From the IMG/VR virus record IMGVR_UViG_3300047181_000007: a DNA stretch of 20,000 bases. One strand, written 5' to 3'. Shown here piece by piece: positions 6,833-17,541 of this stretch. How positions within the stretch are numbered: the first letter of the stretch is position 1; each line of letters begins with the position of its first letter. The notes under the pieces are model-generated. The model worked only from the letters and a program-made list of their open reading frames with translations. It did not search any database and had not been told where the DNA came from. Position numbers and translations under genes: made by a program. Source of the DNA: an uncultured virus (IMG/VR IMGVR_UViG_3300047181_000007). Taxonomy: Duplodnaviria > Heunggongvirae > Uroviricota > Caudoviricetes.

Positions 6833-8314
6833 TTACCTCACCTTCATGTATTCAAACTCACTTATAGGCATAAACCCTATTTCTTTCAAGTAATCAGAGA
6901 ACCAACCACTATGGTCATAGTGTTGTGGGTATATATCCTGCTGATGGAAGTTAGTCGAGAAACCGAGACTCCCACCCACCTTCAGCACCCTATGTATATT
7001 GAGCAACACATCCTTCAGATCGACTTCTGCAAGATGCTCGAAAGTATCTGTAGAGACTGCATTATCGAAAGATGCATCTGGAGTAAGTTGACGCCATGTA
7101 TCATCCACAATTGAAAGCATCCCAATCTCTCCAGAGAAATCTTTCGCATAATCCTTCCAGCGCATATCCTGAAAACGGCGAAGAACAGGATTTACTTCTA
7201 CAGAAAGAACGTTGCATCCCTGGACACATAGTTGGATTGCTAACGAGCCAATACCAGAACCAATCTCGATGATATTTCTCTCTCTCAAGGAAACAAACCG
7301 CTGCCTAATTTGGTTGTATACACCACCAAAGTTCCAATGAAGTAACTCATTGACATAGAGCTGACCAGTCTTTTCCTCAAGATAGAATGCCTCAGCTTCT
7401 TCAGCAGAAACTACTTTATCGCCAAACTTCTCTCGCCAATAGTCACCAGTCTCGTGTTCATTGCTAGCATCAAGTGCAATCTTGGCTTCGTCAAGAGAGA
7501 CACCAAAGAAGTTTGACCACCAAAGAGCTGCATCCTTCTTACTGAAAGATGTAGAATTGATACCAAGGTTGATATAGTTCATCCTAAACTGTGCTTGTCC
7601 CATTGGAACCCAATGGTAGTGACCACAGATCGTAGAGAAGTCACAGTAGATAGGGAAACCGTGTTCCTTGGCTTCCTTGCAGAATACCAGGTCCTCGGAG
7701 TTGCCACCATAGCGATATTCAAAGATCGGCTTGGGCATAGCTTCAAGAACAGAACGGTGGATAGCAATACAACCTGTTGCTACAGCATCTACTTCCATTA
7801 GAGCATTAGGGTCATTCTCCACCACAAGTGCACCATCACGCATAGGAATATTGTGAGAGTCGAGGTAAGCAAATACCTCTTTCTTCATGGCTCGCCATAG
7901 CAGGGCGGGACGACCATAGTCGTCCAGCCCCGCATTAGGAGTATATCTAAAGGCGAATGGGTCATGGCTAGTTCCACGATGGAAATACAACGCTCCAACA
8001 ATGGGTTTGTTCCATCTCACTAGGCGCATTGGCGCATCAATGGGATGCTCCATATCGGTATCTATCATCACTAACCATTCGGGCTTATCTTCCCTTCTCA
8101 GGAAGTCCTCACAGATAGTGTCCCGATTGCGGTCTACTCGATGACCTTCGGCTTGAAAGTAACCACCACCTAAACCAGCCTTTGCTAACTCGGTTAGAAT
8201 GGCATCACGGTTATCTACAAACTGTGTCAAGTAGATGCGTTCACGTGGTATCCCGATAAAGATTTTCCCTTTTCCAATTTCTTCTTTCTTAGATTTCTTG
8301 GATTTTCTAGTCAT
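6833..8314 (-). CDS. Glycosyltransferase (GT2-like) fused to a class I SAM-dependent methyltransferase
   Basis: 493 aa. N-terminal GT-A motifs: 'IFIGIP', 'RNRD', 'WLVMIDTDM' (DxD), 'VGALYF', 'ATGCIAIHRSVLE', 'SEDLVFCKEAKEHGFPIYCD'. C-terminal MTase motifs: motif I 'IIEIGSGIG', 'SVEVN', 'SFDNAVSTDTFEHL', 'HRVLKVGG'. Confidence 0.88.
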   Translation of the reverse strand: MTRKSKKSKKEEIGKGKIFIGIPRERIYLTQFVDNRDAILTELAKAGLGGGYFQAEGHRVDRNRDTICEDFLRREDKPEWLVMIDTDMEHPIDAPMRLVRWNKPIVGALYFHRGTSHDPFAFRYTPNAGLDDYGRPALLWRAMKKEVFAYLDSHNIPMRDGALVVENDPNALMEVDAVATGCIAIHRSVLEAMPKPIFEYRYGGNSEDLVFCKEAKEHGFPIYCDFSTICGHYHWVPMGQAQFRMNYINLGINSTSFSKKDAALWWSNFFGVSLDEAKIALDASNEHETGDYWREKFGDKVVSAEEAEAFYLEEKTGQLYVNELLHWNFGGVYNQIRQRFVSLRERNIIEIGSGIGSLAIQLCVQGCNVLSVEVNPVLRRFQDMRWKDYAKDFSGEIGMLSIVDDTWRQLTPDASFDNAVSTDTFEHLAEVDLKDVLLNIHRVLKVGGSLGFSTNFHQQDIYPQHYDHSGWFSDYLKEIGFMPISEFEYMKVR

Positions 8315-8326
8315 ATAATGTCCTCT

Positions 8327-8926
8327 TTATGAATAGGTTAGGGCTATCCCGAAGTCGAATTGCGTCTTTGCTCCAACTGATTCAGGAGTAGCAGAAACAG
8401 CGATGTAGAAAGTGTGAGAAGCGGCTGCTGCTTGATCGGAAAGACCAAGACGCTCGCCAGAATTATCACCACCAATGTTACCACTATCATCGTTGATTTG
8501 GGTCCAGGTTGTTGCTGCAACACCACGCTCGAAAGCGTAGGCTTCAACACCAATTGCTTCAGCTGTGACGGTTGAGCCGTCAAACGAGTAGAAGCGAGCC
8601 GATGAAGTTGCTACTGAAGAAGCATCTGTAAATAGGATTTGCAGAGTGCATTCAGTTGCTGCAAGGTTAGTGTCATTTAGTGTTTCTGTGCCACCACCTG
8701 TATCCATCTGAGTGCTAGATACCCATTTGACATTTCTCATGTGGTTAGCGCCACATTGGTCGGTGCCTGGGTCGCCGTTGCCAACATGAGTACCAGTATT
8801 CCACTGTCCTACAGTAATAGGAGTAGTGCAATCTGAGGCGCTTCCAGAAAAGACGATGGTATTGGATGCAATATCAGCCCAAGCAGGACCAGCACCCATA
8901 TACGCATTCCACGTAAATGTAGCCAT
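8327..8926 (-). CDS. Putative virion structural protein
   Basis: 199 aa, rich in T/G/A/S and poor in Lys, with a strong SD (AGGAGG). Second gene after the portal. Confidence 0.6.
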   Translation of the reverse strand: MATFTWNAYMGAGPAWADIASNTIVFSGSASDCTTPITVGQWNTGTHVGNGDPGTDQCGANHMRNVKWVSSTQMDTGGGTETLNDTNLAATECTLQILFTDASSVATSSARFYSFDGSTVTAEAIGVEAYAFERGVAATTWTQINDDSGNIGGDNSGERLGLSDQAAAASHTFYIAVSATPESVGAKTQFDFGIALTYS

Positions 8927-8936
8927 TTAGAGCCTC

Positions 8937-9332
8937 CTAGGTTCCTTGTAAGTAGGCAGAGTGCTGGATTCTCTTTACACGTGAGGCAAGAGTCCGTATG
9001 ATATTCACTGTGCCAGTCATAACAGTTTCTTCATATCCATTGGCATCTACTACATTTAGGTGGTGTCTGAATGTTCCATATATAGATCGGGTATCTGCTG
9101 AAGTTAGATGAATGATACAATCTCCATCTGTAGGAGGAACTACAATCTCAATACCATTATCCTCGCTGGTTTTCCTTAGCACCTCGACATACTTATCAGT
9201 CATCAGTACATAGTTCAACTGAGCATCAGTCAACTCTTTGTCAGCGCCAAGATGGTCTACGATGTGGACATGAATGTCTTTATCGTTTCCTGAGTAGAAG
9301 TCCTCTTTGATGTCCTGCTTTTCTAGTGTCAT
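8937..9332 (-). CDS. BppU N-terminal/Ig-like virion adaptor protein
   Basis: 131 aa. 'FYSGNDKDIHVHIVD..GADKELTDA...GDCIIHLTSADT...GTFRHHLNVVD...TVMTGTVNI' fits the BppU_N-type pattern. SD GGAGG. Confidence 0.6.
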   Translation of the reverse strand: MTLEKQDIKEDFYSGNDKDIHVHIVDHLGADKELTDAQLNYVLMTDKYVEVLRKTSEDNGIEIVVPPTDGDCIIHLTSADTRSIYGTFRHHLNVVDANGYEETVMTGTVNIIRTLASRVKRIQHSAYLQGT

Positions 9333-9357
9333 AGGTCCTCCATTCCATTAGATGGAA

Positions 9358-10950
9358 TTAGTCGGCAACTGGTTTCTTTGGAGTAGCTGGTTTCTTGGGT
9401 TGGGTAGTAGAGTTATTGACTGTAGTATTACCACCACCAAAGGGGACAGGAGGGGGAGCAAACTTAGCCTGAACCTTAGCATTTGTAGTAGCCAAGTCCT
9501 CAACCCACTGCAAGATTTGCTTGCGCTCTTCTGGAATATCCTCAACATCACCAGTAAGCTCAAGTAGATGCTCGATTGAACCAAGATTAGCACTTGCTCT
9601 CTGAACCCACTCTTGAACATCAGTCTCACGATCACGAGGCAGATTAGGTGCCCACATCTGCTTGATACGCATTTTGGTATGTTCTTCAGTAATACCAGCT
9701 AATCCTTTTATCTGCATCATACGAAGAAGCATTCGTTCTAATACATCAAGACCAGCTGTCCAGAAATATCGCTCCATATTGGTGTGACTTAGAAGTGCCC
9801 AAAAGCGCATGGCGAGTGTCATACCAGAACGCTGACTGCCCTCGTCTTCGCCTTCTGCAATTGCAGGAACGAATGAGTCTCTACGGTATTGATTATAGAT
9901 TTCTTTTACAAGGGATTGCATTGCAGCTGAAGCACGTGGAGTACGCACTTCTTCCATAGTAGGCTCTGGTTCTTGACCACTAATACCCTGCGAGTTTCCG
10001 AGGTCTACTACCTCTAACCACTCATTGACACGCTTGACTTGAATAGAACCGTTGATGTTTCGTACTGAGATAATAGGATGAGAGTCGTCATTTATAGCAT
10101 CTCCATAGTCACCATACCTAAGATTGAGTTCCTTGACCAGACCTTTCAGATGATCGAAAGCATTCCTACCTATGAACTCCCCTACACGGATGTGCGGAAT
10201 ATAGACAATTGGCACTTCTCCAAATGGATTATCTCCACCAAGTGGATACTTGGTTCCACCAATATCTACAGAGGCTTCCTGGTTATTGATACGAACCTCA
10301 TAAGTATCCCGAAGCCAATGCTCAGTGTACCAATAAGATAGATCATTGCCAGTTGGCTCATATCCCCAATGGACCGCTTGCTGTTGAGTAATCTCGTAGG
10401 CAATCCATCCTTCAGAAAGACGGTACATATCTGAAGCATCAGGATAACCAACAACAAATTTAGGATTGAGTAGCTCGACACGGATTGGAATAGACCGCCA
10501 TGTTTCCCACGGCACGTAGGTTGCCTTGAAGAAGCAACCACCATATATCTGAGACAGAATGGCATTCTCTACCATCACAGCCCGCCCATGATTTTCCCAC
10601 CAGACCATATTGAGTGGCTCTTCGGCTTTATCGGATTCGGGACCAGCAGGTAGCAACTTTGGTATTACTAATGGACGACCATCATTCTCTACTTCTCCAA
10701 ATAAGATATAGGCGTGTTTTAGAACAGTAGTTATGATTGGATTTATGTGCATCGGATAGACTTCTACTGGTTTTCCAGCAGCGTTGCTCCGAGTTTCATT
10801 TAGAGATTCACCAGTAAACCAAGTCTCTTGCTCCTGGTATACCTGAAGTTGTGCATTGTAGTCACTAGCAGGAAAATCAGGGAGGGTTTCCAACGAAAAG
10901 GCTGGTGTTGGAACAAAGAGTCCTTTGATAGTATTCAGAGTATTGAGCAT
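9358..10950 (-). CDS. Portal protein (SPP1 gp6-like)
   Basis: Follows TerL, ~530 aa. Motifs 'NPFGEVPIVYIPH...GRNAFDHLKGLVKELN', 'SGMTLAMRF' and 'WAPNLPRD'. Start placed at ATG 10950 (SD GGGAGG) rather than 11007. Confidence 0.85.
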   Translation of the reverse strand: MLNTLNTIKGLFVPTPAFSLETLPDFPASDYNAQLQVYQEQETWFTGESLNETRSNAAGKPVEVYPMHINPIITTVLKHAYILFGEVENDGRPLVIPKLLPAGPESDKAEEPLNMVWWENHGRAVMVENAILSQIYGGCFFKATYVPWETWRSIPIRVELLNPKFVVGYPDASDMYRLSEGWIAYEITQQQAVHWGYEPTGNDLSYWYTEHWLRDTYEVRINNQEASVDIGGTKYPLGGDNPFGEVPIVYIPHIRVGEFIGRNAFDHLKGLVKELNLRYGDYGDAINDDSHPIISVRNINGSIQVKRVNEWLEVVDLGNSQGISGQEPEPTMEEVRTPRASAAMQSLVKEIYNQYRRDSFVPAIAEGEDEGSQRSGMTLAMRFWALLSHTNMERYFWTAGLDVLERMLLRMMQIKGLAGITEEHTKMRIKQMWAPNLPRDRETDVQEWVQRASANLGSIEHLLELTGDVEDIPEERKQILQWVEDLATTNAKVQAKFAPPPVPFGGGNTTVNNSTTQPKKPATPKKPVAD

Positions 10951-11068
10951 GCTTCCTCCCAATTGAAAATGCAGAAAGAATGGAGTTTCATCCATTTCAA
11001 TCTGCATGTAGAGTAATTATAGTCTATCTTGACATTATTTACTAGCTTATCGGTTGACTTCATTTCTT

Positions 11069-12745
11069 TTATCTCGGTGGATGCTGCGCTTGGTGTGCTG
11101 TACCTGATCTACGGCTTCTTGCTTCACCAGATAACCTTCTAGCACCCACATCCAAGCCCTTATTACCCTGACTAGCACGAGCAAGTATTTCTTCAGTATC
11201 GACATGGAAGAATCCTCTTATTCCGTAAGCTGACATAGACATACAGGCTACAATGTCCTGTGCTATCTTCTTGTCTCTTTCAGCATCATAGTTAGTTAGT
11301 TGGCTACGTATTCCAGAAATAGACTTTGCCCAGGTCAAGAGTCTTGACTCAATAAACAGTCGGCAACAGGTAAGGTAAGCACTCTTGCCACCTCCTGAGA
11401 AATCCATCCCATGGATACCACGTACTATACCCAAAGGACTAACATAACCAGGGTCTTCAATAAGTGCATTAACATCATCTGGTGCTTTCTTTTGAGTAAA
11501 TCTCTTCCTAAAGATATGTTCATTGATAAGCTGAGCTGAGTTCTTTTGTGGTCCAGTGGAGTCAATATAGAATCTAACGGGTTTGTAGATTTCTGCAAAG
11601 TCAAGCATCCTATCCACAAAAGGAGCAATCTTTCCTCCACCATCCCCCCAATAAAAGGCAACGAGATGTGCTGGTAATTTGGGGAAATCCATGACATCCC
11701 AAACCATCAAGACAGGTGCATTCCGTTGAGGAGCTGTACCAATACCTGGGTCGCCAAAACCAATGTAGAGTTTTCCTGCTATTGGAGGCACAGTGAAGTA
11801 AGTAACACCAGCGCCATGCATTTTCTCAAAGGCGTAGTTAGGTTCGCCAGCAGCAGCAGCTCTTTCTACTAATTCACCCTCTAGAAGATCCTCGCAAGCA
11901 TAGACACTCTGTCTGTCAAAGAAGTTGCCACGTCCTTCTGGACGAGTACCCTCAATGAACCGTTCACGCTCTTCAATGGGGATACGAGCAACCATACGCT
12001 TCAGTTGCTCATCAGTCACATTCTTATTATGTCTAGTAGACACCACAAGAGAAAGATAGTTTTCGGGGTCTGCCATGGCTTGGTCAAAGTAATACCAGAG
12101 ATGGAAGTTATCCCACGAGTTTGAAATCATCGAGAAACGTCCTAGACGTTCTCTTCCTTTGACAGCACCACGTAAACGGGAACCAACATTGATAATAATG
12201 TCTTCAAGATTATCCAATAGACCAGCTTCGTCAATATTCAGCCAGTCACCTTCCCATGACAAGATACCTGTAGCATCTCTATCAGCAGACATGAACTCCA
12301 GATTGCTTTCATAAAGGGACTTGCCAATTCTATATCTAATGACAATTTTGGGAAATGGTTTCCTAGGTTGCTCCCAAATTAGGTCTTCAAAGCGTGTATT
12401 TCTAGCCCATAACAGAACCAGATCGTACATCTGCTTGGCTTGCCACGCTTTCTCTGCAACATTTAGGAATTTGAAATCCTTAGTAAGTAAACACCATGTA
12501 CAAGCAGACATGGCGATTCCCAAGGTCTTACCCGTACCAAAACCACCAATTACCGTTATATCCTTTTGGGATGCTTCATGTACTGTTCTCTGCCATGCCC
12601 CCTCTGGTACAAAGTTATCGTCAAACAACCAGCCCTTATCTGTTCCTGGCTGTCGGAAGAAGTAGTTGGTAATTACACTTGGGTCTTCGACACCTTGTTG
12701 CAGTATCTCTATCTCGCTAGGAGTGAGTACTGCTTCTTGTCTCAT
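11069..12745 (-). CDS. terL: Terminase large subunit
   Basis: 558 aa with Walker A 'GGFGTGKT', Walker B 'WLNIDEAG', motif III 'ISN' and an RNase H-like C-terminal domain ('IGFGDPG', 'YIDSTG', 'QDIV'). Directly upstream of the portal. Confidence 0.93.
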   Translation of the reverse strand: MRQEAVLTPSEIEILQQGVEDPSVITNYFFRQPGTDKGWLFDDNFVPEGAWQRTVHEASQKDITVIGGFGTGKTLGIAMSACTWCLLTKDFKFLNVAEKAWQAKQMYDLVLLWARNTRFEDLIWEQPRKPFPKIVIRYRIGKSLYESNLEFMSADRDATGILSWEGDWLNIDEAGLLDNLEDIIINVGSRLRGAVKGRERLGRFSMISNSWDNFHLWYYFDQAMADPENYLSLVVSTRHNKNVTDEQLKRMVARIPIEERERFIEGTRPEGRGNFFDRQSVYACEDLLEGELVERAAAAGEPNYAFEKMHGAGVTYFTVPPIAGKLYIGFGDPGIGTAPQRNAPVLMVWDVMDFPKLPAHLVAFYWGDGGGKIAPFVDRMLDFAEIYKPVRFYIDSTGPQKNSAQLINEHIFRKRFTQKKAPDDVNALIEDPGYVSPLGIVRGIHGMDFSGGGKSAYLTCCRLFIESRLLTWAKSISGIRSQLTNYDAERDKKIAQDIVACMSMSAYGIRGFFHVDTEEILARASQGNKGLDVGARRLSGEARSRRSGTAHQAQHPPR

Positions 12746-13011: not shown

Positions 13012-13229
13012 TTTGATATTCCTTTCGTGCTTCGTGACGAATAGAAGTCTTCGGCTGTACCTTGACGCACAAACATCACTGCATTATCCGTGTGACGTTG
13101 AAGCACTTTCCATAAAGCTCCCCCAAAGTCGATATAGCCAGGATGCTTCTCTTCTTCCCACATTGCAAGCATCACTGAGTATTGATCGTCTTCAGGATAA
13201 ACTCGAACCTCTTCAGTCGTTCCACTCAT
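13008..13229 (-). CDS. Hypothetical protein (73 aa)
   Basis: Start reassigned to MSGTTEE (SD GAGGAGG). ATGA-type overlap with the next gene. Confidence 0.65.
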   Translation of the reverse strand: MSGTTEEVRVYPEDDQYSVMLAMWEEEKHPGYIDFGGALWKVLQRHTDNAVMFVRQGTAEDFYSSRSTKGISK

Positions 13230-13371
13230 CGTCAATATCCTCCTCGGCATCTTCCATAATTTCTTTCAGACAATCAGGGCAATACCAATTCCCATCTTTG
13301 TATAGATAAGAACCAGTAGCTCCACAAGAATCACATGGTTCATCTGAATTGAAGGGTATTTCAATTGCCAT
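13213..13371 (-). CDS. Zn-ribbon microprotein with acidic tail (52 aa)
   Basis: Below the ORF-track cutoff: MAIEIPFNSDEPCDSCGATGSYLYKDGNWYCPDCLKEIMEDAEEDIDDEWND. Fills the gap between its neighbours with overlaps. Confidence 0.75.
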   Translation of the reverse strand: MAIEIPFNSDEPCDSCGATGSYLYKDGNWYCPDCLKEIMEDAEEDIDDEWND

Positions 13372-13642
13372 CCTTCTCTTTCTCCTCGATTCTATTATAG
13401 AGTTCCTCTAATCTTTCCATTAGATGGAACACTTTGACCAGAGTATCTAATCTTCTATCAATTTCATCGAGTCTTTTAGCAATATAGTCTTTCAGTGATT
13501 CTGGAGCAGCTGGAAATGGTGGATAAGGAAGGGAATAGGTTGTACCTGGGCAAGTATGTACATCACCATATTTCACAAAAGCCCCACAGGTAAAACATAT
13601 ATACCCATTTACATAATAGGCGTTTTCACTCTGATTAGACAT
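13361..13642 (-). CDS. Hypothetical protein with CxxC...HxC Zn site and coiled coil
   Basis: 'CFTCG...HTC' followed by the heptad 'IAKRLDEIDRRLDTL'. Start at MSNQ (SD GGAGG). Confidence 0.7.
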   Translation of the reverse strand: MSNQSENAYYVNGYICFTCGAFVKYGDVHTCPGTTYSLPYPPFPAAPESLKDYIAKRLDEIDRRLDTLVKVFHLMERLEELYNRIEEKEKDGN

Positions 13643-13775
13643 AGCATCCTCCATGCAGCATGAACTAATCCGTAATCGGCTCCATTTTCATTTTCATATA
13701 AGCAGCTGCGCTTGCCTAGTTGTTGTCCCCTTCACAAGCAGTAATGATTATACACCAATAATATACAAATAATGT

Positions 13776-14315
13776 TTACTTACCGATATGTTTCTGATCG
13801 AATGGGTCTTTGTCTATCCATAGAGTGATGTTCTTACCACCTACTCTACACTCATGTACTACTCTACCATGGGGCTCTTCACCAGGAGTAAAGTATGTGG
13901 CTCGTGTCTCTTCCATTATCTTATCCCGCCATACTTCAATTGCATCTAAGACCTTACCACAAGTCTTATACTCGACCACAATATACTCATCTAGCTTGAA
14001 TTTCCCCAATCTTCTCATTATCTGAATCCAGTGAATAATGTCGTTGGCAATTGTCTCTAGATACAGGTCTGGTGTCACATCTGTATCTAGCGCAATTGTG
14101 TAACCTCGTGACTCTTTGACAACCCACTTAGGCATACTGTACTCCTCTAAAATCTTATCAGATAACTTGGCTCTTTCAGAAATCTCTATATCTTCTCGAA
14201 AGAGTATCATACAGGCAATTCTGCGAGCTGTACTGCGTGCACCTTGACTATATCCAACTAACATACCAAGCCAGAAAGCCCCTACAGTAAAAGCGACTAC
14301 TATCCAATCAGGCAT
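13776..14315 (-). CDS. N-terminal TM segment fused to an IleRS type-2 C-terminal-like (DUF5915-like) domain
   Basis: aa 61-179 'GYTIALDTDVTPDLYLETIANDIIHWIQIMRR..KF.LDEYI.V.Y...VLDAIEVWRDKIMEETRA' parallels the remembered IleRS2 tail consensus 'VALDT.LTPEL..EGLARE.VRRIQ.LRK.AG..V.DRI...AI..H.DYI..ETLA'. aa 5-22 are hydrophobic. Confidence 0.72.
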   Translation of the reverse strand: MPDWIVVAFTVGAFWLGMLVGYSQGARSTARRIACMILFREDIEISERAKLSDKILEEYSMPKWVVKESRGYTIALDTDVTPDLYLETIANDIIHWIQIMRRLGKFKLDEYIVVEYKTCGKVLDAIEVWRDKIMEETRATYFTPGEEPHGRVVHECRVGGKNITLWIDKDPFDQKHIGK

Positions 14316-14354
14316 TATCCCATCTCCATTCTTCTCCTACTGCGACTTCTTGTG

Positions 14355-14984
14355 TTATTTGTAATGATAATCCAGCTCAGGATGTCTTTCACTGTACACA
14401 TCTCGCCTTCTAATTGAGGTATATCGCAATTCTGGTGGTTGTAGTTGCACAAGACTAATATCTAGCTTTCTTGGATGAATAAAATCGAAGTATAGGTCAA
14501 TAGGCTCAATAAGATGCTCCTTGTCCATCACAACAAACCACCAGGGAAGCTTTGTCAGACTATTGAGCTTGAACGTAGTATAGAAGTACTCTTTGTACCA
14601 GTATGGCACCCAAAACATGCCTGTATTCGATTGATTTACCAAGGCGTAGGCACACAATGGTAATGGGTACTCCTTGTAGTAAATATGGTTTTCACTATCA
14701 ATGAAAATGTTTGCTGTGTGCCAATCATCATAACAGCGATAATCCCATCCATGATTCTGTTTTACTTCAACTCGACCTGTTTCAGGAAGATATACATGAA
14801 CATCACCTCTATCATTGTGTTTTCGCTCTTTCTTGGAATATTCAACCCACTTAGCCTTGAAACCTTGCTCTAACAGAAACTTGCATACCGCTTTCTCAGA
14901 TTGCTCTGCACCTTCTACTAAATCATCAAACTGCTTTTGAGTAAGTCCACTAGGCGCTACATCTTCAGGCTTCACTATACTCAT
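14355..14984 (-). CDS. PD-(D/E)XK nuclease-like protein
   Basis: 'SEKAVCKFL..QG...RGDVHV......VEVKQ' catalytic pattern. Start at MSIVK by ATGA coupling with the upstream stop. Confidence 0.6.
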   Translation of the reverse strand: MSIVKPEDVAPSGLTQKQFDDLVEGAEQSEKAVCKFLLEQGFKAKWVEYSKKERKHNDRGDVHVYLPETGRVEVKQNHGWDYRCYDDWHTANIFIDSENHIYYKEYPLPLCAYALVNQSNTGMFWVPYWYKEYFYTTFKLNSLTKLPWWFVVMDKEHLIEPIDLYFDFIHPRKLDISLVQLQPPELRYTSIRRRDVYSERHPELDYHYK

Positions 14985-15346
14985 TTTGCTTTCCTCATTG
15001 TCCAAATGAATGCCTTTGTAAGCCCTGTCACTACCCTCTCTTCATGCTCAAGCCCATCTTCCCTCATCTCGTTGACTAATATGTGTACCAACTCGTGAAC
15101 AACGATCCGCTCAACCTTCCACTTCTTTAGCCCCTTGAACGCTGGCACATTTATGTAGACATGCGCTACCCCATACATCCAATTTACATCTACCTTCGAT
15201 GCTACAATCCTCCCATCACTCGCTGCCCCAAATGTGTCCAGTATCTCCTTCGCCTTATCTGCCCATATAATGTTTACCTCCCACCACCTAAGACCAAGCG
15301 GCGTCAACCACTTATTTATTACCTTCATTATCCCTTTTCTCTTCAT
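14981..15346 (-). CDS. Zincin-like metallopeptidase (HExxH)
   Basis: 121 aa, 'IVVHELVHILV...HEERVV'. Confidence 0.65.
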   Translation of the reverse strand: MKRKGIMKVINKWLTPLGLRWWEVNIIWADKAKEILDTFGAASDGRIVASKVDVNWMYGVAHVYINVPAFKGLKKWKVERIVVHELVHILVNEMREDGLEHEERVVTGLTKAFIWTMRKAK

Positions 15347-15681
15347 ATATCCTCCATCCTAATCATAATCTCGTCAGCTAACATACACTTTCCCGACCAC
15401 TTCAACCTTATATTCCCACGTACATAACACTTAATAATATACCTGTCCATCCTGGTATGCAAAGCACCAAAGAACTCCATGGCTCTCTCTTCACTATCAA
15501 AATAATGCCAACCCGATTTATAGTACTCCCCACCAGAACCATCACTGACCCATTTATGCCTACATTTATACCATATACCTAACGGTATAACTCTACTACG
15601 ATTGGTACCATGAAACAACGACATCACCTTGTCCCCCACTATCTCCACTACCTTGTATCCAACCACTACCCCATCATCCAT
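15343..15681 (-). CDS. Hypothetical phage protein, probably leaderless (112 aa)
   Basis: 'GYKVV...MSLF...SGWHYF...KCYVRG' pattern, common in phage accessory proteins. ATG 15681 is the 7th nt after a TATAAT. Confidence 0.65.
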   Translation of the reverse strand: MDDGVVVGYKVVEIVGDKVMSLFHGTNRSRVIPLGIWYKCRHKWVSDGSGGEYYKSGWHYFDSEERAMEFFGALHTRMDRYIIKCYVRGNIRLKWSGKCMLADEIMIRMEDI

Positions 15682-15687
15682 CCCTGT

Positions 15688-15717
15688 ATTATAGCGCATA
15701 GGCTTCGATATTTTCAA
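15688..15717 (-). promoter_or_regulatory. Sigma70-type leftward promoter
   Basis: TTGAAA (15717-15712), 18-nt spacer, TATAAT (15693-15688) at the head of the minus-strand arm. Confidence 0.7.
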
Positions 15718-15774
15718 CACCGTCCATTTTTAATAGGGTGATACTGGTTGGGGGGGACATATAGAAGTGAACGT

Positions 15775-15811
15775 GGGGTATGTTGACAAACTACCCCTGC
15801 TTCTATACCCT
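15775..15811 (+). promoter_or_regulatory. Sigma70-type rightward promoter with an inverted repeat over the -35
   Basis: TTGACA (15783-15788), 17-nt spacer, TACCCT (15806-15811). GGGGTA-N11-TACCCC dyad (15775-15797) brackets the -35. Confidence 0.55.
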
Positions 15812-15869
15812 CTACTACTCCCTACCCCCTAATGGGGGGAGGGGAGGCTCCCCTGGGGGGGGAGTATCG

Positions 15870-16180
15870 TGCCGCTTGGTGGCTCTTCTCTGCCTGAGCA
15901 GAAAAGGAGACTAACATGACACTATTTGAGGTTTATATCAATGGTGCACATACACTCAACATCTGCTGTAAGGATGGAGTAGAGCTTATCAACATGCTAA
16001 CTAAGATGGCTTTCCTATGCCAAAACGTAAGCATAAGAGATGTATTCTATGACTTATGGTTTGCTTGGAATGGCAAGTTCTTAGTACCACACAAGCAGAT
16101 AGGTTCTTATCAACGCTATCTGCATATAGTGGCTGACTAATCAATCTATAGCTCAGGCAGAAGAGAGCTACTAAGCAGCA
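15870..16180. repeat. 30-bp imperfect inverted repeat pair (15870-15899 / 16151-16180) enclosing one ORF
   Basis: TGCCGCTTGGTGGCTCTTCTCTGCCTGAGC vs GCTCAGGCAGAAGAGAGCTACTAAGCAGCA: 25 WC pairs, 3 G-U, 2 mismatches. Confidence 0.85.
15916..16140 (+). CDS. Hypothetical protein (74 aa)
   Basis: Strong SD AAGGAG close to the ATG; first gene of the rightward arm. Confidence 0.7.
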   Translation: MTLFEVYINGAHTLNICCKDGVELINMLTKMAFLCQNVSIRDVFYDLWFAWNGKFLVPHKQIGSYQRYLHIVAD

Positions 16181-16213
16181 GCATTGGACTCTATAAGGAA
16201 AGGAGAATAACCC

Positions 16214-16351
16214 ATGTTCATTACAGAGACAATCCAGATGCTGACTACTATGGCATACAACTTAGCTGGTGCTCTTAGTGTAGGCACATGCTTACCACTA
16301 ATGGTACTTGTTATGTTTGGCTATGTCGTATTTAGAGCAGCGAAAGACTAG
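16214..16351 (+). CDS. Small membrane peptide (45 aa)
   Basis: SD AAAGGAG; MFITETIQMLTTMAYNLAGALSVGTCLPLMVLVMFGYVVFRAAKD, one hydrophobic helix with a basic C-terminus. Confidence 0.65.
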   Translation: MFITETIQMLTTMAYNLAGALSVGTCLPLMVLVMFGYVVFRAAKD

Positions 16352-16531
16352 GTGCCCCTAAGCCTAGTGCGTTGCTATGCAAGAGTGCATGCTTGCATAG
16401 CAGGTGGGCAGTCCTGCCTATGACAATAGGCGCTCAGGATAGACAGCCTTATATCTTGCCCTAAGCAGGCAGTATTACACTGTTACTGCAAGAAGGCAAA
16501 GGCTGCTATCGCCAGGTACGATGCATTCAAT

Positions 16532-16738
16532 CACACGTGCATGCGTGCCAAAGATACGTAATCAGTACAGCTAAGCACAGTAATAGCGTGCTTGCATGTG
16601 CATGTTTACTAGTACGCAATACGCTATGCCTAGGCATAGTAGTACACGCATGTACATGCTTGCATACGCTACTACATGTGCATGTGTGTATGCATGTGTG
16701 TAGTATAGCATGTGCATATACATGTGTATGTGTATGTA
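16532..16738. repeat. Alternating purine/pyrimidine, palindrome-rich non-coding tract
   Basis: Strict RY runs at 16532-16548 (17 nt), 16642-16659 (18), 16673-16702 (30) and 16708-16738 (31). Perfect palindromes CTATGCCTAGGCATAG (16624-16639) and GCATGTACATGC (16648-16659). Confidence 0.85.
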
Positions 16739-16881
16739 GCTGCTACTGCTAGTATAGAGTAGTGCATTGACTGTCGTAGAGACTGTAGTGTGAAGCCTGT
16801 GCAAGACCCTTACTGTAGCATACATGACGTAAAGCAAGGGCATACATTTAGGCATCCATAATCACAGAAGATGGAAGGACT

Positions 16882-16977
16882 ATGCAAAGATGGAATAAGT
16901 TGAAAGCCTTCCCTTCAAAGCAACGATTGAGAGTTGACGTTGCAGAGATGAACGCATACATTCAACATGCACTTTAG
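16882..16977 (+). CDS. Possible microprotein (31 aa)
   Basis: GGAAGGA upstream; MQRWNKLKAFPSKQRLRVDVAEMNAYIQHAL. Confidence 0.35.
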   Translation: MQRWNKLKAFPSKQRLRVDVAEMNAYIQHAL

Positions 16978-17142
16978 CAGTGATGTTTGCTGCACATCAT
17001 GTCGTCTTAGGACGACTGCCCGCTTACAACACTAACCAATTGGCGTGTTCAGGGCAATTACTATGTCGTTCCTGCTTATCAAGGGCTAATCGGTGCAAAC
17101 CCGAAGGAACGCTTTTATCCCTTAGGAAAGGAGGTGATAAAG

Positions 17143-17316
17143 ATGGCTAGTAATTGGTGGTACGGTGATCCAGTGACTGGTACTTGTGATAAATGTACTG
17201 GTCCAACAATTGACGGTTATTGTGCCAATTGTGCCGAGTTTGTTCAATCCGCTGAGTTATCCGAGGAGCATGAATTGACTCCTGAAGAAACAGCGGAATA
17301 TTCGTTGGATGCATAA
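17143..17316 (+). CDS. Zn-ribbon microprotein with acidic tail (57 aa)
   Basis: Full-length SD AAAGGAGGTGAT; CDKC-x8-CANC followed by an E-rich tail. Confidence 0.75.
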   Translation: MASNWWYGDPVTGTCDKCTGPTIDGYCANCAEFVQSAELSEEHELTPEETAEYSLDA

Positions 17317-17325
17317 GGAGGTACT

Positions 17326-17541
17326 GTGGGCAAGACTCGAAAGCCTGTCTGGAAGCGACAGGGATATGGCAAGAAGCAAGAAAATGAGAAAGAACGTGCA
17401 GAACTGACGGAAGATGCTAGTCGTGGCTTCGTTGTTTGCACGTACACTCACAGGTCAAATGCTGATTGGATTGATGGAGAATCAGCCAATGCTCTACGCA
17501 GAGCAATCAATCAGGTTCAGGGAGAGCAGAATGGCGACTAG
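17326..17541 (+). CDS. Hypothetical protein (71 aa)
   Basis: SD AAGGAGG before GTG. Confidence 0.65.
   Translation: MGKTRKPVWKRQGYGKKQENEKERAELTEDASRGFVVCTYTHRSNADWIDGESANALRRAINQVQGEQNGD

Follow-up and report, generated by a model that had tools for sequence, protein, structure and literature searches.

An in-frame fusion of a small membrane protein and a free-standing anticodon-recognition domain of type-2 isoleucyl-tRNA synthetase in an uncultured phage

Results and Discussion

The open reading frame (ORF) described here lies at positions 13776..14315, on the minus strand, of a 20,000-nucleotide (nt) stretch of DNA from an uncultured virus of the Caudoviricetes (IMG/VR record IMGVR_UViG_3300047181_000007; the whole stretch is referred to as the window). 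It starts with an ATG, ends with a stop codon at 13776-13778 and encodes 179 amino acids (aa). Its anatomy and the fusion can be stated with high confidence: the ORF joins the two genes of a mobile phage cassette in one frame. The N-terminal module (aa 1-60; 14136..14315, minus strand) is a homologue of a free-standing single-pass membrane protein of 67-69 aa, and the C-terminal head (aa 61-179; 13776..14135, minus strand) is a copy of the anticodon-recognition domain that comes last in type-2 isoleucyl-tRNA synthetase (IleRS2) and for which we use the name ARD3 of Modrusan et al. 2026 (PMC13752280, main text). By sequence, profile and fold, the head is a stand-alone, phage-encoded C-terminal tRNA-contact domain of IleRS2 from which the enzyme itself is absent.

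Homology and fold of the ARD3-like head

An earlier note, made from the letters of the window alone, had likened aa 61-179 to the C-terminal extension of isoleucyl-tRNA synthetases and had proposed a HMMER comparison with DUF5915. In that comparison, the Pfam family DUF5915 (PF19302) matched aa 55-169 with an E-value of 2.3e-14 and 53.8 bits (curated cut-off 27), over profile positions 83-194 of 195. Taken by itself, the 119-aa part scored 53.2 bits, and the ARD3 homologue of a related metagenome locus (L003, see below) 54.8 bits. The proposed likeness is further borne out by a profile built from three phage sequences only (A2), which aligned with residues 927-1028 of the 1032 residues of P. 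megaterium IleRS2 (8C8U/V/W, 8C9D; E 4.4e-7) and with yeast IleRS (8WND; E 3.3e-4), as well as by the predicted fold. An AlphaFold2 model of the 179-aa protein, computed from an input alignment of 133 rows, reached predicted local distance difference test (pLDDT) values of 84-98 for aa 61-170 and of 50-56 for aa 1-60. The top Foldseek match for this model was 8c8v (E 3.3e-7, root-mean-square deviation (rmsd) 1.8 Å, 108 columns), followed by other IleRS entries, and VIA-align placed model residues 48-171 on residues 912-1032 of the 8c8v chain with a Z-score of 14.3 (121 residues, rmsd 3.2 Å); the first unrelated family, a V-ATPase subunit, reached a Z-score of only 6.3.

Of the enzyme, nothing else was recognised. 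On the 179-aa protein, Pfam gave no family but DUF5915 above its cut-off and no HUP/HIGH/KMSKS core, which agrees with the statement of the earlier note that a catalytic core is missing; the protein has none of the hallmarks of an isoleucyl-tRNA synthetase (HUP core, editing domain, ARD1, ARD2). The search of NCBIfam returned a local match to MupA, confined to residues 912-990 and scoring 12.4 bits against a cut-off of 1900, no PADLOC family matched at E<=0.01, and the best PHROG match had an E-value of 0.019. The start of the VIA-align superposition at model residue 48, together with HMMER envelopes opening at about aa 26-30, hinted that the tail of the N-terminal module might be the part of IleRS that precedes ARD3. 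This idea was rejected: hhalign assigned it a probability of 0.2%, the corresponding protein of L003 has no Pfam match, and including the tail gained only 0.6 bits.

Two overlapping genes in relatives, one frame in the window

An exhaustive HMMER search with the 179-aa query gave 464 matches at E<=1e-3, among them proteins that correspond to one or the other half of the query. P0003 (119 aa, 47% identical) begins with MPNW, its own residue 1 being aligned to query residue 61; a further relative outside these matches, P0154 (128 aa, 79% identical to P0003), begins with MPNY. P0002 (132 aa, 75% identical) carries 18 residues ahead of its MPKW that are unrelated to the tail of the anchor. Conversely, P0004 (67 aa, 63% identical) covers query residues 4-60 only and has EEFKYA as its C-terminus.

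The DNA of this split layout was supplied by two metagenome loci, L003 and L004. In both, a 69-aa ORF (7980..8189) that ends in EEYKHA and a stop codon is followed by an ARD3 ORF in another frame, whose ATG (8182-8184) lies within the final 8 nt of the 69-aa ORF: ATGCCTAA. Such an overlap suggests that translation of the two genes is coupled. Apart from the anchor and the head, the window and L003/L004 have no ORF in common (blastp, E<=1e-4). We regard the pairing of the stand-alone ARD3 with the small membrane protein as obligatory. When the DNA of the window was aligned with that of L003, a single gap was found in 255 columns, immediately upstream of the ARD3 ATG (14138..14139, minus strand; GAGTAC-AGTATG in the window, GAATATAAGCATG in L003). 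A single base thus determines whether there are two overlapping genes or one ORF of 179 aa, and this difference in length places both modules in one frame.

An assembly error does not account for the fusion. In all four metagenome runs inspected (X7, X8, X9 and X12), contigs carry the fused frame with no indels and no other letters; these runs represent four coded studies, possibly of one campaign, and contigs can hide rare variants. Coverage extended to all 30 bins in three of the runs and to 20 of 30 in X12, the junction being covered by all four. We read the fusion as derived in the lineage of the window, because its closest relative, P0002, and the branch of P0003 and P0154 are both unfused; the reading draws on few lineages, and P0002 is known from its protein only.

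An internal start codon at the domain boundary

The ARD3-like head opens with an in-frame ATG (Met61; 14133..14135, minus strand) that corresponds to the start codon of the separate ARD3 gene in the relatives. It is preceded, with a 6-nt spacer, by the Shine-Dalgarno (SD) sequence AGAGGAG (14142..14148, minus strand). The earlier note had placed a strong SD and an ATG at 14135 exactly at the domain boundary, and both the sequence and a ranking of sites sustain this: with a duplex energy of -8.6 kcal/mol against the anti-SD, the site ranks 6th among 130 internal in-frame ATGs of 29 ORFs, compared with -6.4 kcal/mol for the start at 14315 and a median of -4.9 kcal/mol for listed starts. The five internal sites ranked above it lie 4-31 codons from the listed start of their own ORF, so that 14135, which is 60 codons in, is the strongest deep internal site.

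The fusion explains why an ATG and its SD stand at the boundary, the two genes being separate in relatives, and for the same reason a free 119-aa product beside the tethered 179-aa one is plausible. At the equivalent place L003 has the weaker GGAAGAA; the difference lies in synonymous Glu codons (GAG GAG in the window, GAA GAA in L003), the SD being stronger in the window. This pattern is consistent with the 119-aa product still being initiated on its own.

Two observations on other start sites were made alongside. The ATGs at 13229, 13642, 10950 and 18320/18326 show SD pairing of -9.3 to -11.8 kcal/mol and lie 4-31 codons inside the starts of the longest ORFs; these genes probably begin further downstream than listed. 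In addition, a mini-ORF of four codons (ATG GAG ATG GGA TAA; 14329-14315, minus strand) precedes the 179-aa ORF, its stop codon overlapping the ATG of the latter as TAATG. Its SD (AGGAG, 14338-14334, 4-nt spacer) is the best of that intergenic gap, and in its place L003 and P0004 have 7-8 additional in-frame N-terminal residues.

The membrane anchor module

A transmembrane helix had been claimed for aa 5-22, and the best Kyte-Doolittle window indeed falls on aa 5-23 (IVVAFTVGAFWLGMLVGYS; 14247..14303, minus strand), with a mean of 1.85 over 19 residues. It is the only strongly hydrophobic stretch, with D3 on its N-terminal side and R27, R31 and R32 on its C-terminal side, from which, via the positive-inside rule, we infer an N-out/C-in orientation. 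The motif GARSTAR(R/K)IA that follows the helix is invariant in all three homologues.

The 69-aa ORF of L003/L004 is 68% identical to the anchor. Relative to L003, the anchor is conserved better than the head (67% vs 45% amino-acid identity), and its ratio of non-synonymous to synonymous substitution rates (dN/dS) is 0.14 (60 codons, dS 1.69). For the anchor, this value speaks against decay, which the earlier note had tied to a dN/dS near 1; for the head, dS relative to L003 is saturated, so that it has no dN/dS value. The anchor has no Pfam, PADLOC or PHROG family, the word-index search returned no homologue of it, and a query of the ESM Atlas with aa 1-60 gave no usable feature match, the structural rows being generic helices.

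Phage context, distribution and origin

The window is phage DNA, because PHROG matches identify a portal protein (9358..11007; phrog_64, E 1.1e-17), a large terminase (11069..12745; phrog_2, E 3.9e-15) and a tail protein, and the 179-aa ORF is part of the same-strand gene run that contains these three genes. The identical 179-aa protein (P0001) was found on 8 contigs, the longest of 81,011 bp. Runs labelled freshwater sediment metagenome contain the stretch; of the 19 listed, 11 hold half or more of the words sampled from it. Neither the DNA of the window nor its terminase has a match in INPHARED, and no tRNA gene was found in the window or in seven loci. A scan of 13300-16400 for promoters and terminators yielded 11 promoter-like sites (8.6 +/- 3.2 expected) and 2 terminator-like sites (1.8 expected).

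The four phage ARD3 proteins are mutual best matches, at 69-213 bits, and their best IleRS-type sequences score 50-68 bits. That the four match each other best suggests a single, fairly old capture of ARD3 by this family. The family comprises about four lineages (word-index searches yielded 2 of 34, none, and 2 of 3 candidates), in all of which the ORFs are intact, at 44-79% identity. Five IMG/VR loci with a terminase 55-58% identical to that of the window share with it only terminase and portal, plus one weak match; the pair is absent from all five, the DNA upstream being sufficient in L006, L007 and L008 only. Because it is absent from terminase-related loci, we regard the pair as an accessory cassette in the variable region upstream of the terminase.

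The search for further stand-alone copies, which the earlier note had proposed, added the relatives P0002, P0003, P0154 and L003/L004; no stand-alone phage copy was found in PHROGs (no significant match), in INPHARED (two contigs with whole or partial IleRS) or in BFVD (giant-virus IleRS only). Pattern scans of IMG/VR matched 2 and 48 stretches, none of which was confirmed as a stand-alone phage copy, and among 47 stretches matched in a scan of genome contigs the one confirmed was a full-length IleRS, in a 3'-open ORF of 1008 aa. The two INPHARED records matched by tblastn were rejected as stand-alone copies: one holds a 1052-aa IleRS and the other an IleRS end that is 5'-open, and in both a glycogen-phosphorylase-like ORF comes next. 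These records (L001, MT835536.1; L002, MT839989.1), which contain a full-length or 5'-open type-2 IleRS, are filed as 'Bacteriophage sp.' and look like bacterial contigs rather than phage. Short DUF5915 matches in the representative library are mostly on contigs of at most 2.5 kb or marked partial, and may be either fragments or true cellular stand-alone copies.

The expectation that the closest IleRS would point to the host did not hold. The best cellular matches are 31-35% identical, score nearly equally and are mostly unnamed metagenome fragments, and the host assignment was accordingly dropped. Among 20 cellular matches, the few named ones are IleRS; two come from Chloroflexota (Nitrolancea, Anaerolineales), which is too thin a basis for naming a host.

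Conservation of the G34 pocket and possible functions

According to the main text of PMC13752280, residues Q961, R964, K965 and L969 in ARD3 of PmIleRS2 form a pocket near anticodon base G34; R964A lowers aminoacylation more than 100-fold, and Q961A and K965A about 10-fold. In the A2 profile alignment, these residues are aligned to Q98, R101, R102 and F106 of the 179-aa protein (codons within 13998..14024, minus strand). The corresponding columns of 128 IleRS-type rows hold Q in 126, R in all 128, K in 100 and R in 28, and F in 85, L in 30 and Y in 13, respectively. All four positions are retained in each of the four phage proteins.

The explanation that we favour as a whole, and which we would call almost but not quite probable, is that the protein serves as a membrane-associated binder of anticodon loops on the cytoplasmic face. 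The small membrane protein would sit in the membrane with the ARD3 head facing the cytoplasm, because the anchor is predicted to be N-out/C-in. Anchor and head probably act together, and would work as a complex, given their co-occurrence, the 8-nt overlap of their genes in relatives and their fusion here. The phage could produce the tethered form of 179 aa as well as a free one of 119 aa, and the non-catalytic head would bind an anticodon loop with G34 (tRNA-Ile-like) at the inner face of the membrane, which might shield or sequester the tRNA or mimic IleRS. The proposals of the earlier note, sequestration or protection of tRNA or a decoy for a defence aimed at tRNA or its synthetases, may likewise apply. 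That the ligand is RNA or tRNA (an anticodon loop with G34) is the tentative element of this proposal and may well prove wrong.

Several observations weigh against this explanation. In IleRS, ARD3 reads G34 only, and does so jointly with ARD1 (PMC13752280, main text), and tRNA binding by an isolated ARD3 may be weak or unspecific. Positions that are conserved in the 128 IleRS-type rows have changed: R91 (128 of 128) is N and G88 (126 of 128) is T in the window and P0002, every phage protein has R in place of L138 (124 of 128), and R95 and R111 have become H and Y in all four. A set of 44 IleRS-type rows reaches a consensus of at least 80% in 15 columns, of which the four phage proteins all retain 7. 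The ARD3-like domain is not basic (net charge -2, isoelectric point 6.1), IleRS-type ARD3 being more acidic still (median net charge -7). AlphaFold2 gives no confident packing of aa 1-60 on the domain (pLDDT 50-56). The derived state of the fusion, too, depends on few lineages and on the 18 upstream residues of P0002 being unrelated to the anchor tail. Finally, the best fold matches of the model include the UNE-I of chicken IARS1 (7wrs_B; Foldseek E 6.4e-4; VIA-align Z-score 12.8, 90 residues, rmsd 2.4 Å), which was solved together with glutamyl-tRNA synthetase.

This last match would be expected of a protein adaptor, in which the ARD3 fold has been re-used for protein-protein interaction with no RNA binding and recruits a host or phage protein, such as host IleRS or another translation factor, to the anchor. 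We judge such a role unlikely, if worth serious consideration. The loss of IleRS-conserved arginines (R95 and R111 in all four proteins, R91 in two of the four), the near-neutral charge of the domain, and ten phage-invariant positions that are rare (at most 15%) in IleRS-type rows, including Y85, H95, Y111, R138, C156 and K161, are in its favour. However, retention is strictest in the G34 pocket (Q98 and R101 in all four, K or R at position 102), and selection on another surface would have had no reason to keep these residues.

The anchor could alternatively be the effector of a membrane-active pair (holin-like, exclusion or membrane-perturbing), with the ARD3 protein as its regulator or chaperone and the IleRS ancestry incidental, which we consider quite improbable. 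Of the two partners, the anchor is conserved better (67% vs 45%; dN/dS 0.14), the cassette is accessory and lies in the variable region upstream of the terminase, and the 8-nt overlap would suit such a pair, tight overlaps of this kind being typical for genes of stoichiometric partners. Nevertheless, the anchor belongs to no PHROG, Pfam or PADLOC family, the PHROG and Pfam scans recognised no endolysin or spanin beside it, and a regulatory role leaves the retention of the G34 pocket unexplained. That the ORF is a decaying remnant, a captured fragment drifting to loss in which the fusion is a neutral accident and one start or none matters, would suit the very small family, the absence of the pair from all five loci with a 55-58% identical terminase and the loss of the invariant R91 and of G88 in the window lineage, but is very improbable in view of ORFs intact in four lineages at 44-79% identity, the dN/dS of 0.14 in the anchor, a fold predicted with high confidence, an internal SD whose strength is higher, not lower, in the fused layout, and an identical sequence in four of four runs.

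In its most specific form, the anticodon-loop binding that we favour would amount to a membrane-tethered clamp acting in trans, derived from a captured G34-reading domain and protecting or sequestering tRNA-Ile or other G34 tRNAs during infection; this we regard as quite improbable. Protection would be, for example, against host anticodon nucleases or tRNA-modifying toxins, and the relative amounts of tethered and free clamp would be governed by the fused ORF, in which the internal start is retained.

Other genes of the window and of L003

Between the structural genes, a 493-aa ORF (6833-8314, minus strand) has PHROG glycosyltransferase matches at aa 168-243 and matches to SAM-dependent (S-adenosylmethionine-dependent) and tRNA methyltransferase PHROGs at aa 335-472. 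Two further minus-strand ORFs without Pfam, PHROG or PADLOC match show motifs that were seen by eye: HELVH in a 121-aa ORF (14981-15346), which we take to be HExxH-like, and a D...EVK pattern in a 216-aa ORF (14355-15005), presumably reminiscent of PD-(D/E)xK nucleases. At about 15720-17400 the genes switch strand and the GC skew changes from about -0.34 (15-16 kb) to +0.08/+0.14 (16-18 kb); this is likely a divergent regulatory region between late and early modules. In L003, a 366-aa ORF (8865-9965) two genes downstream of the cassette combines an N-terminal hydrophobic segment with a long Pro/Thr-rich low-complexity region and has no Pfam match.

Relation to known systems and significance

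The phage head shares with ARD3 of IleRS2 (PmIleRS2 8C8V, yeast 8WND, and the C-terminal half of DUF5915) its fold, sequence homology and the Q-x-x-R-K/R-x-x-x-F/L pocket. Unlike the domain of IleRS2, it stands alone (119 aa) or is joined to an anchor instead of being attached to an enzyme, the protein lacking the HUP core, the editing domain, ARD1 and ARD2; moreover, R91 and G88 are changed in the window lineage, and position 138 is R instead of L in all phage copies. UNE-I of chicken IARS1, bound to EARS1 in 7WRS, resembles the phage head in being an ARD3-like fold outside anticodon reading, but stays within its synthetase, binds a partner of the multi-synthetase complex (according to the entry title) and is only 18-24% identical to the phage head. 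The giant-virus IleRS of BFVD (Homavirus, Bodo saltans virus, Moumouvirus) are likewise IleRS-derived viral sequences to which ARD3 aligns structurally (E 4.4e-7 to 6.3e-4); judged by their names and lengths (up to 1070 aa), however, they are whole or fragmentary synthetases, and they belong to viruses of eukaryotes, whereas the phage gene encodes the domain only.

Free-standing paralogues of aminoacyl-tRNA synthetase domains include the Trbp111-type tRNA-binding proteins, AlaX and the YbaK/ProX trans-editing proteins. Like the phage head, these consist of a single synthetase-derived domain made as a small protein of its own, in their case acting on tRNA in trans; they differ in deriving from OB-fold or editing domains and in being cellular and soluble. 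We know of no free-standing paralogue that has its origin in ARD3 of IleRS2 or a membrane protein as its partner.

The DUF5915/ARD3 domain family is not new, and work published in 2026 has clarified what it does in IleRS (PMC13752280, main text). The literature searched describes no free ARD3 and no phage copy of it and does not mention DUF5915, and the main text of PMC13752280 makes no mention of phage, stand-alone copies, DUF5915 or PF19302. What is new here is the ORF as a fusion of a split cassette of membrane protein and ARD3. It would add a new source domain, being to our knowledge the first free-standing aminoacyl-tRNA synthetase domain to come from ARD3 of IleRS2 and the first to be paired with a membrane protein. 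For annotation, it illustrates how a change of one base can make a single ORF out of two coupled genes, with the internal start kept. Given the essential contact of R964 with G34, a naturally isolated ARD3 also makes it possible to ask whether this domain binds the anticodon loop unaided.

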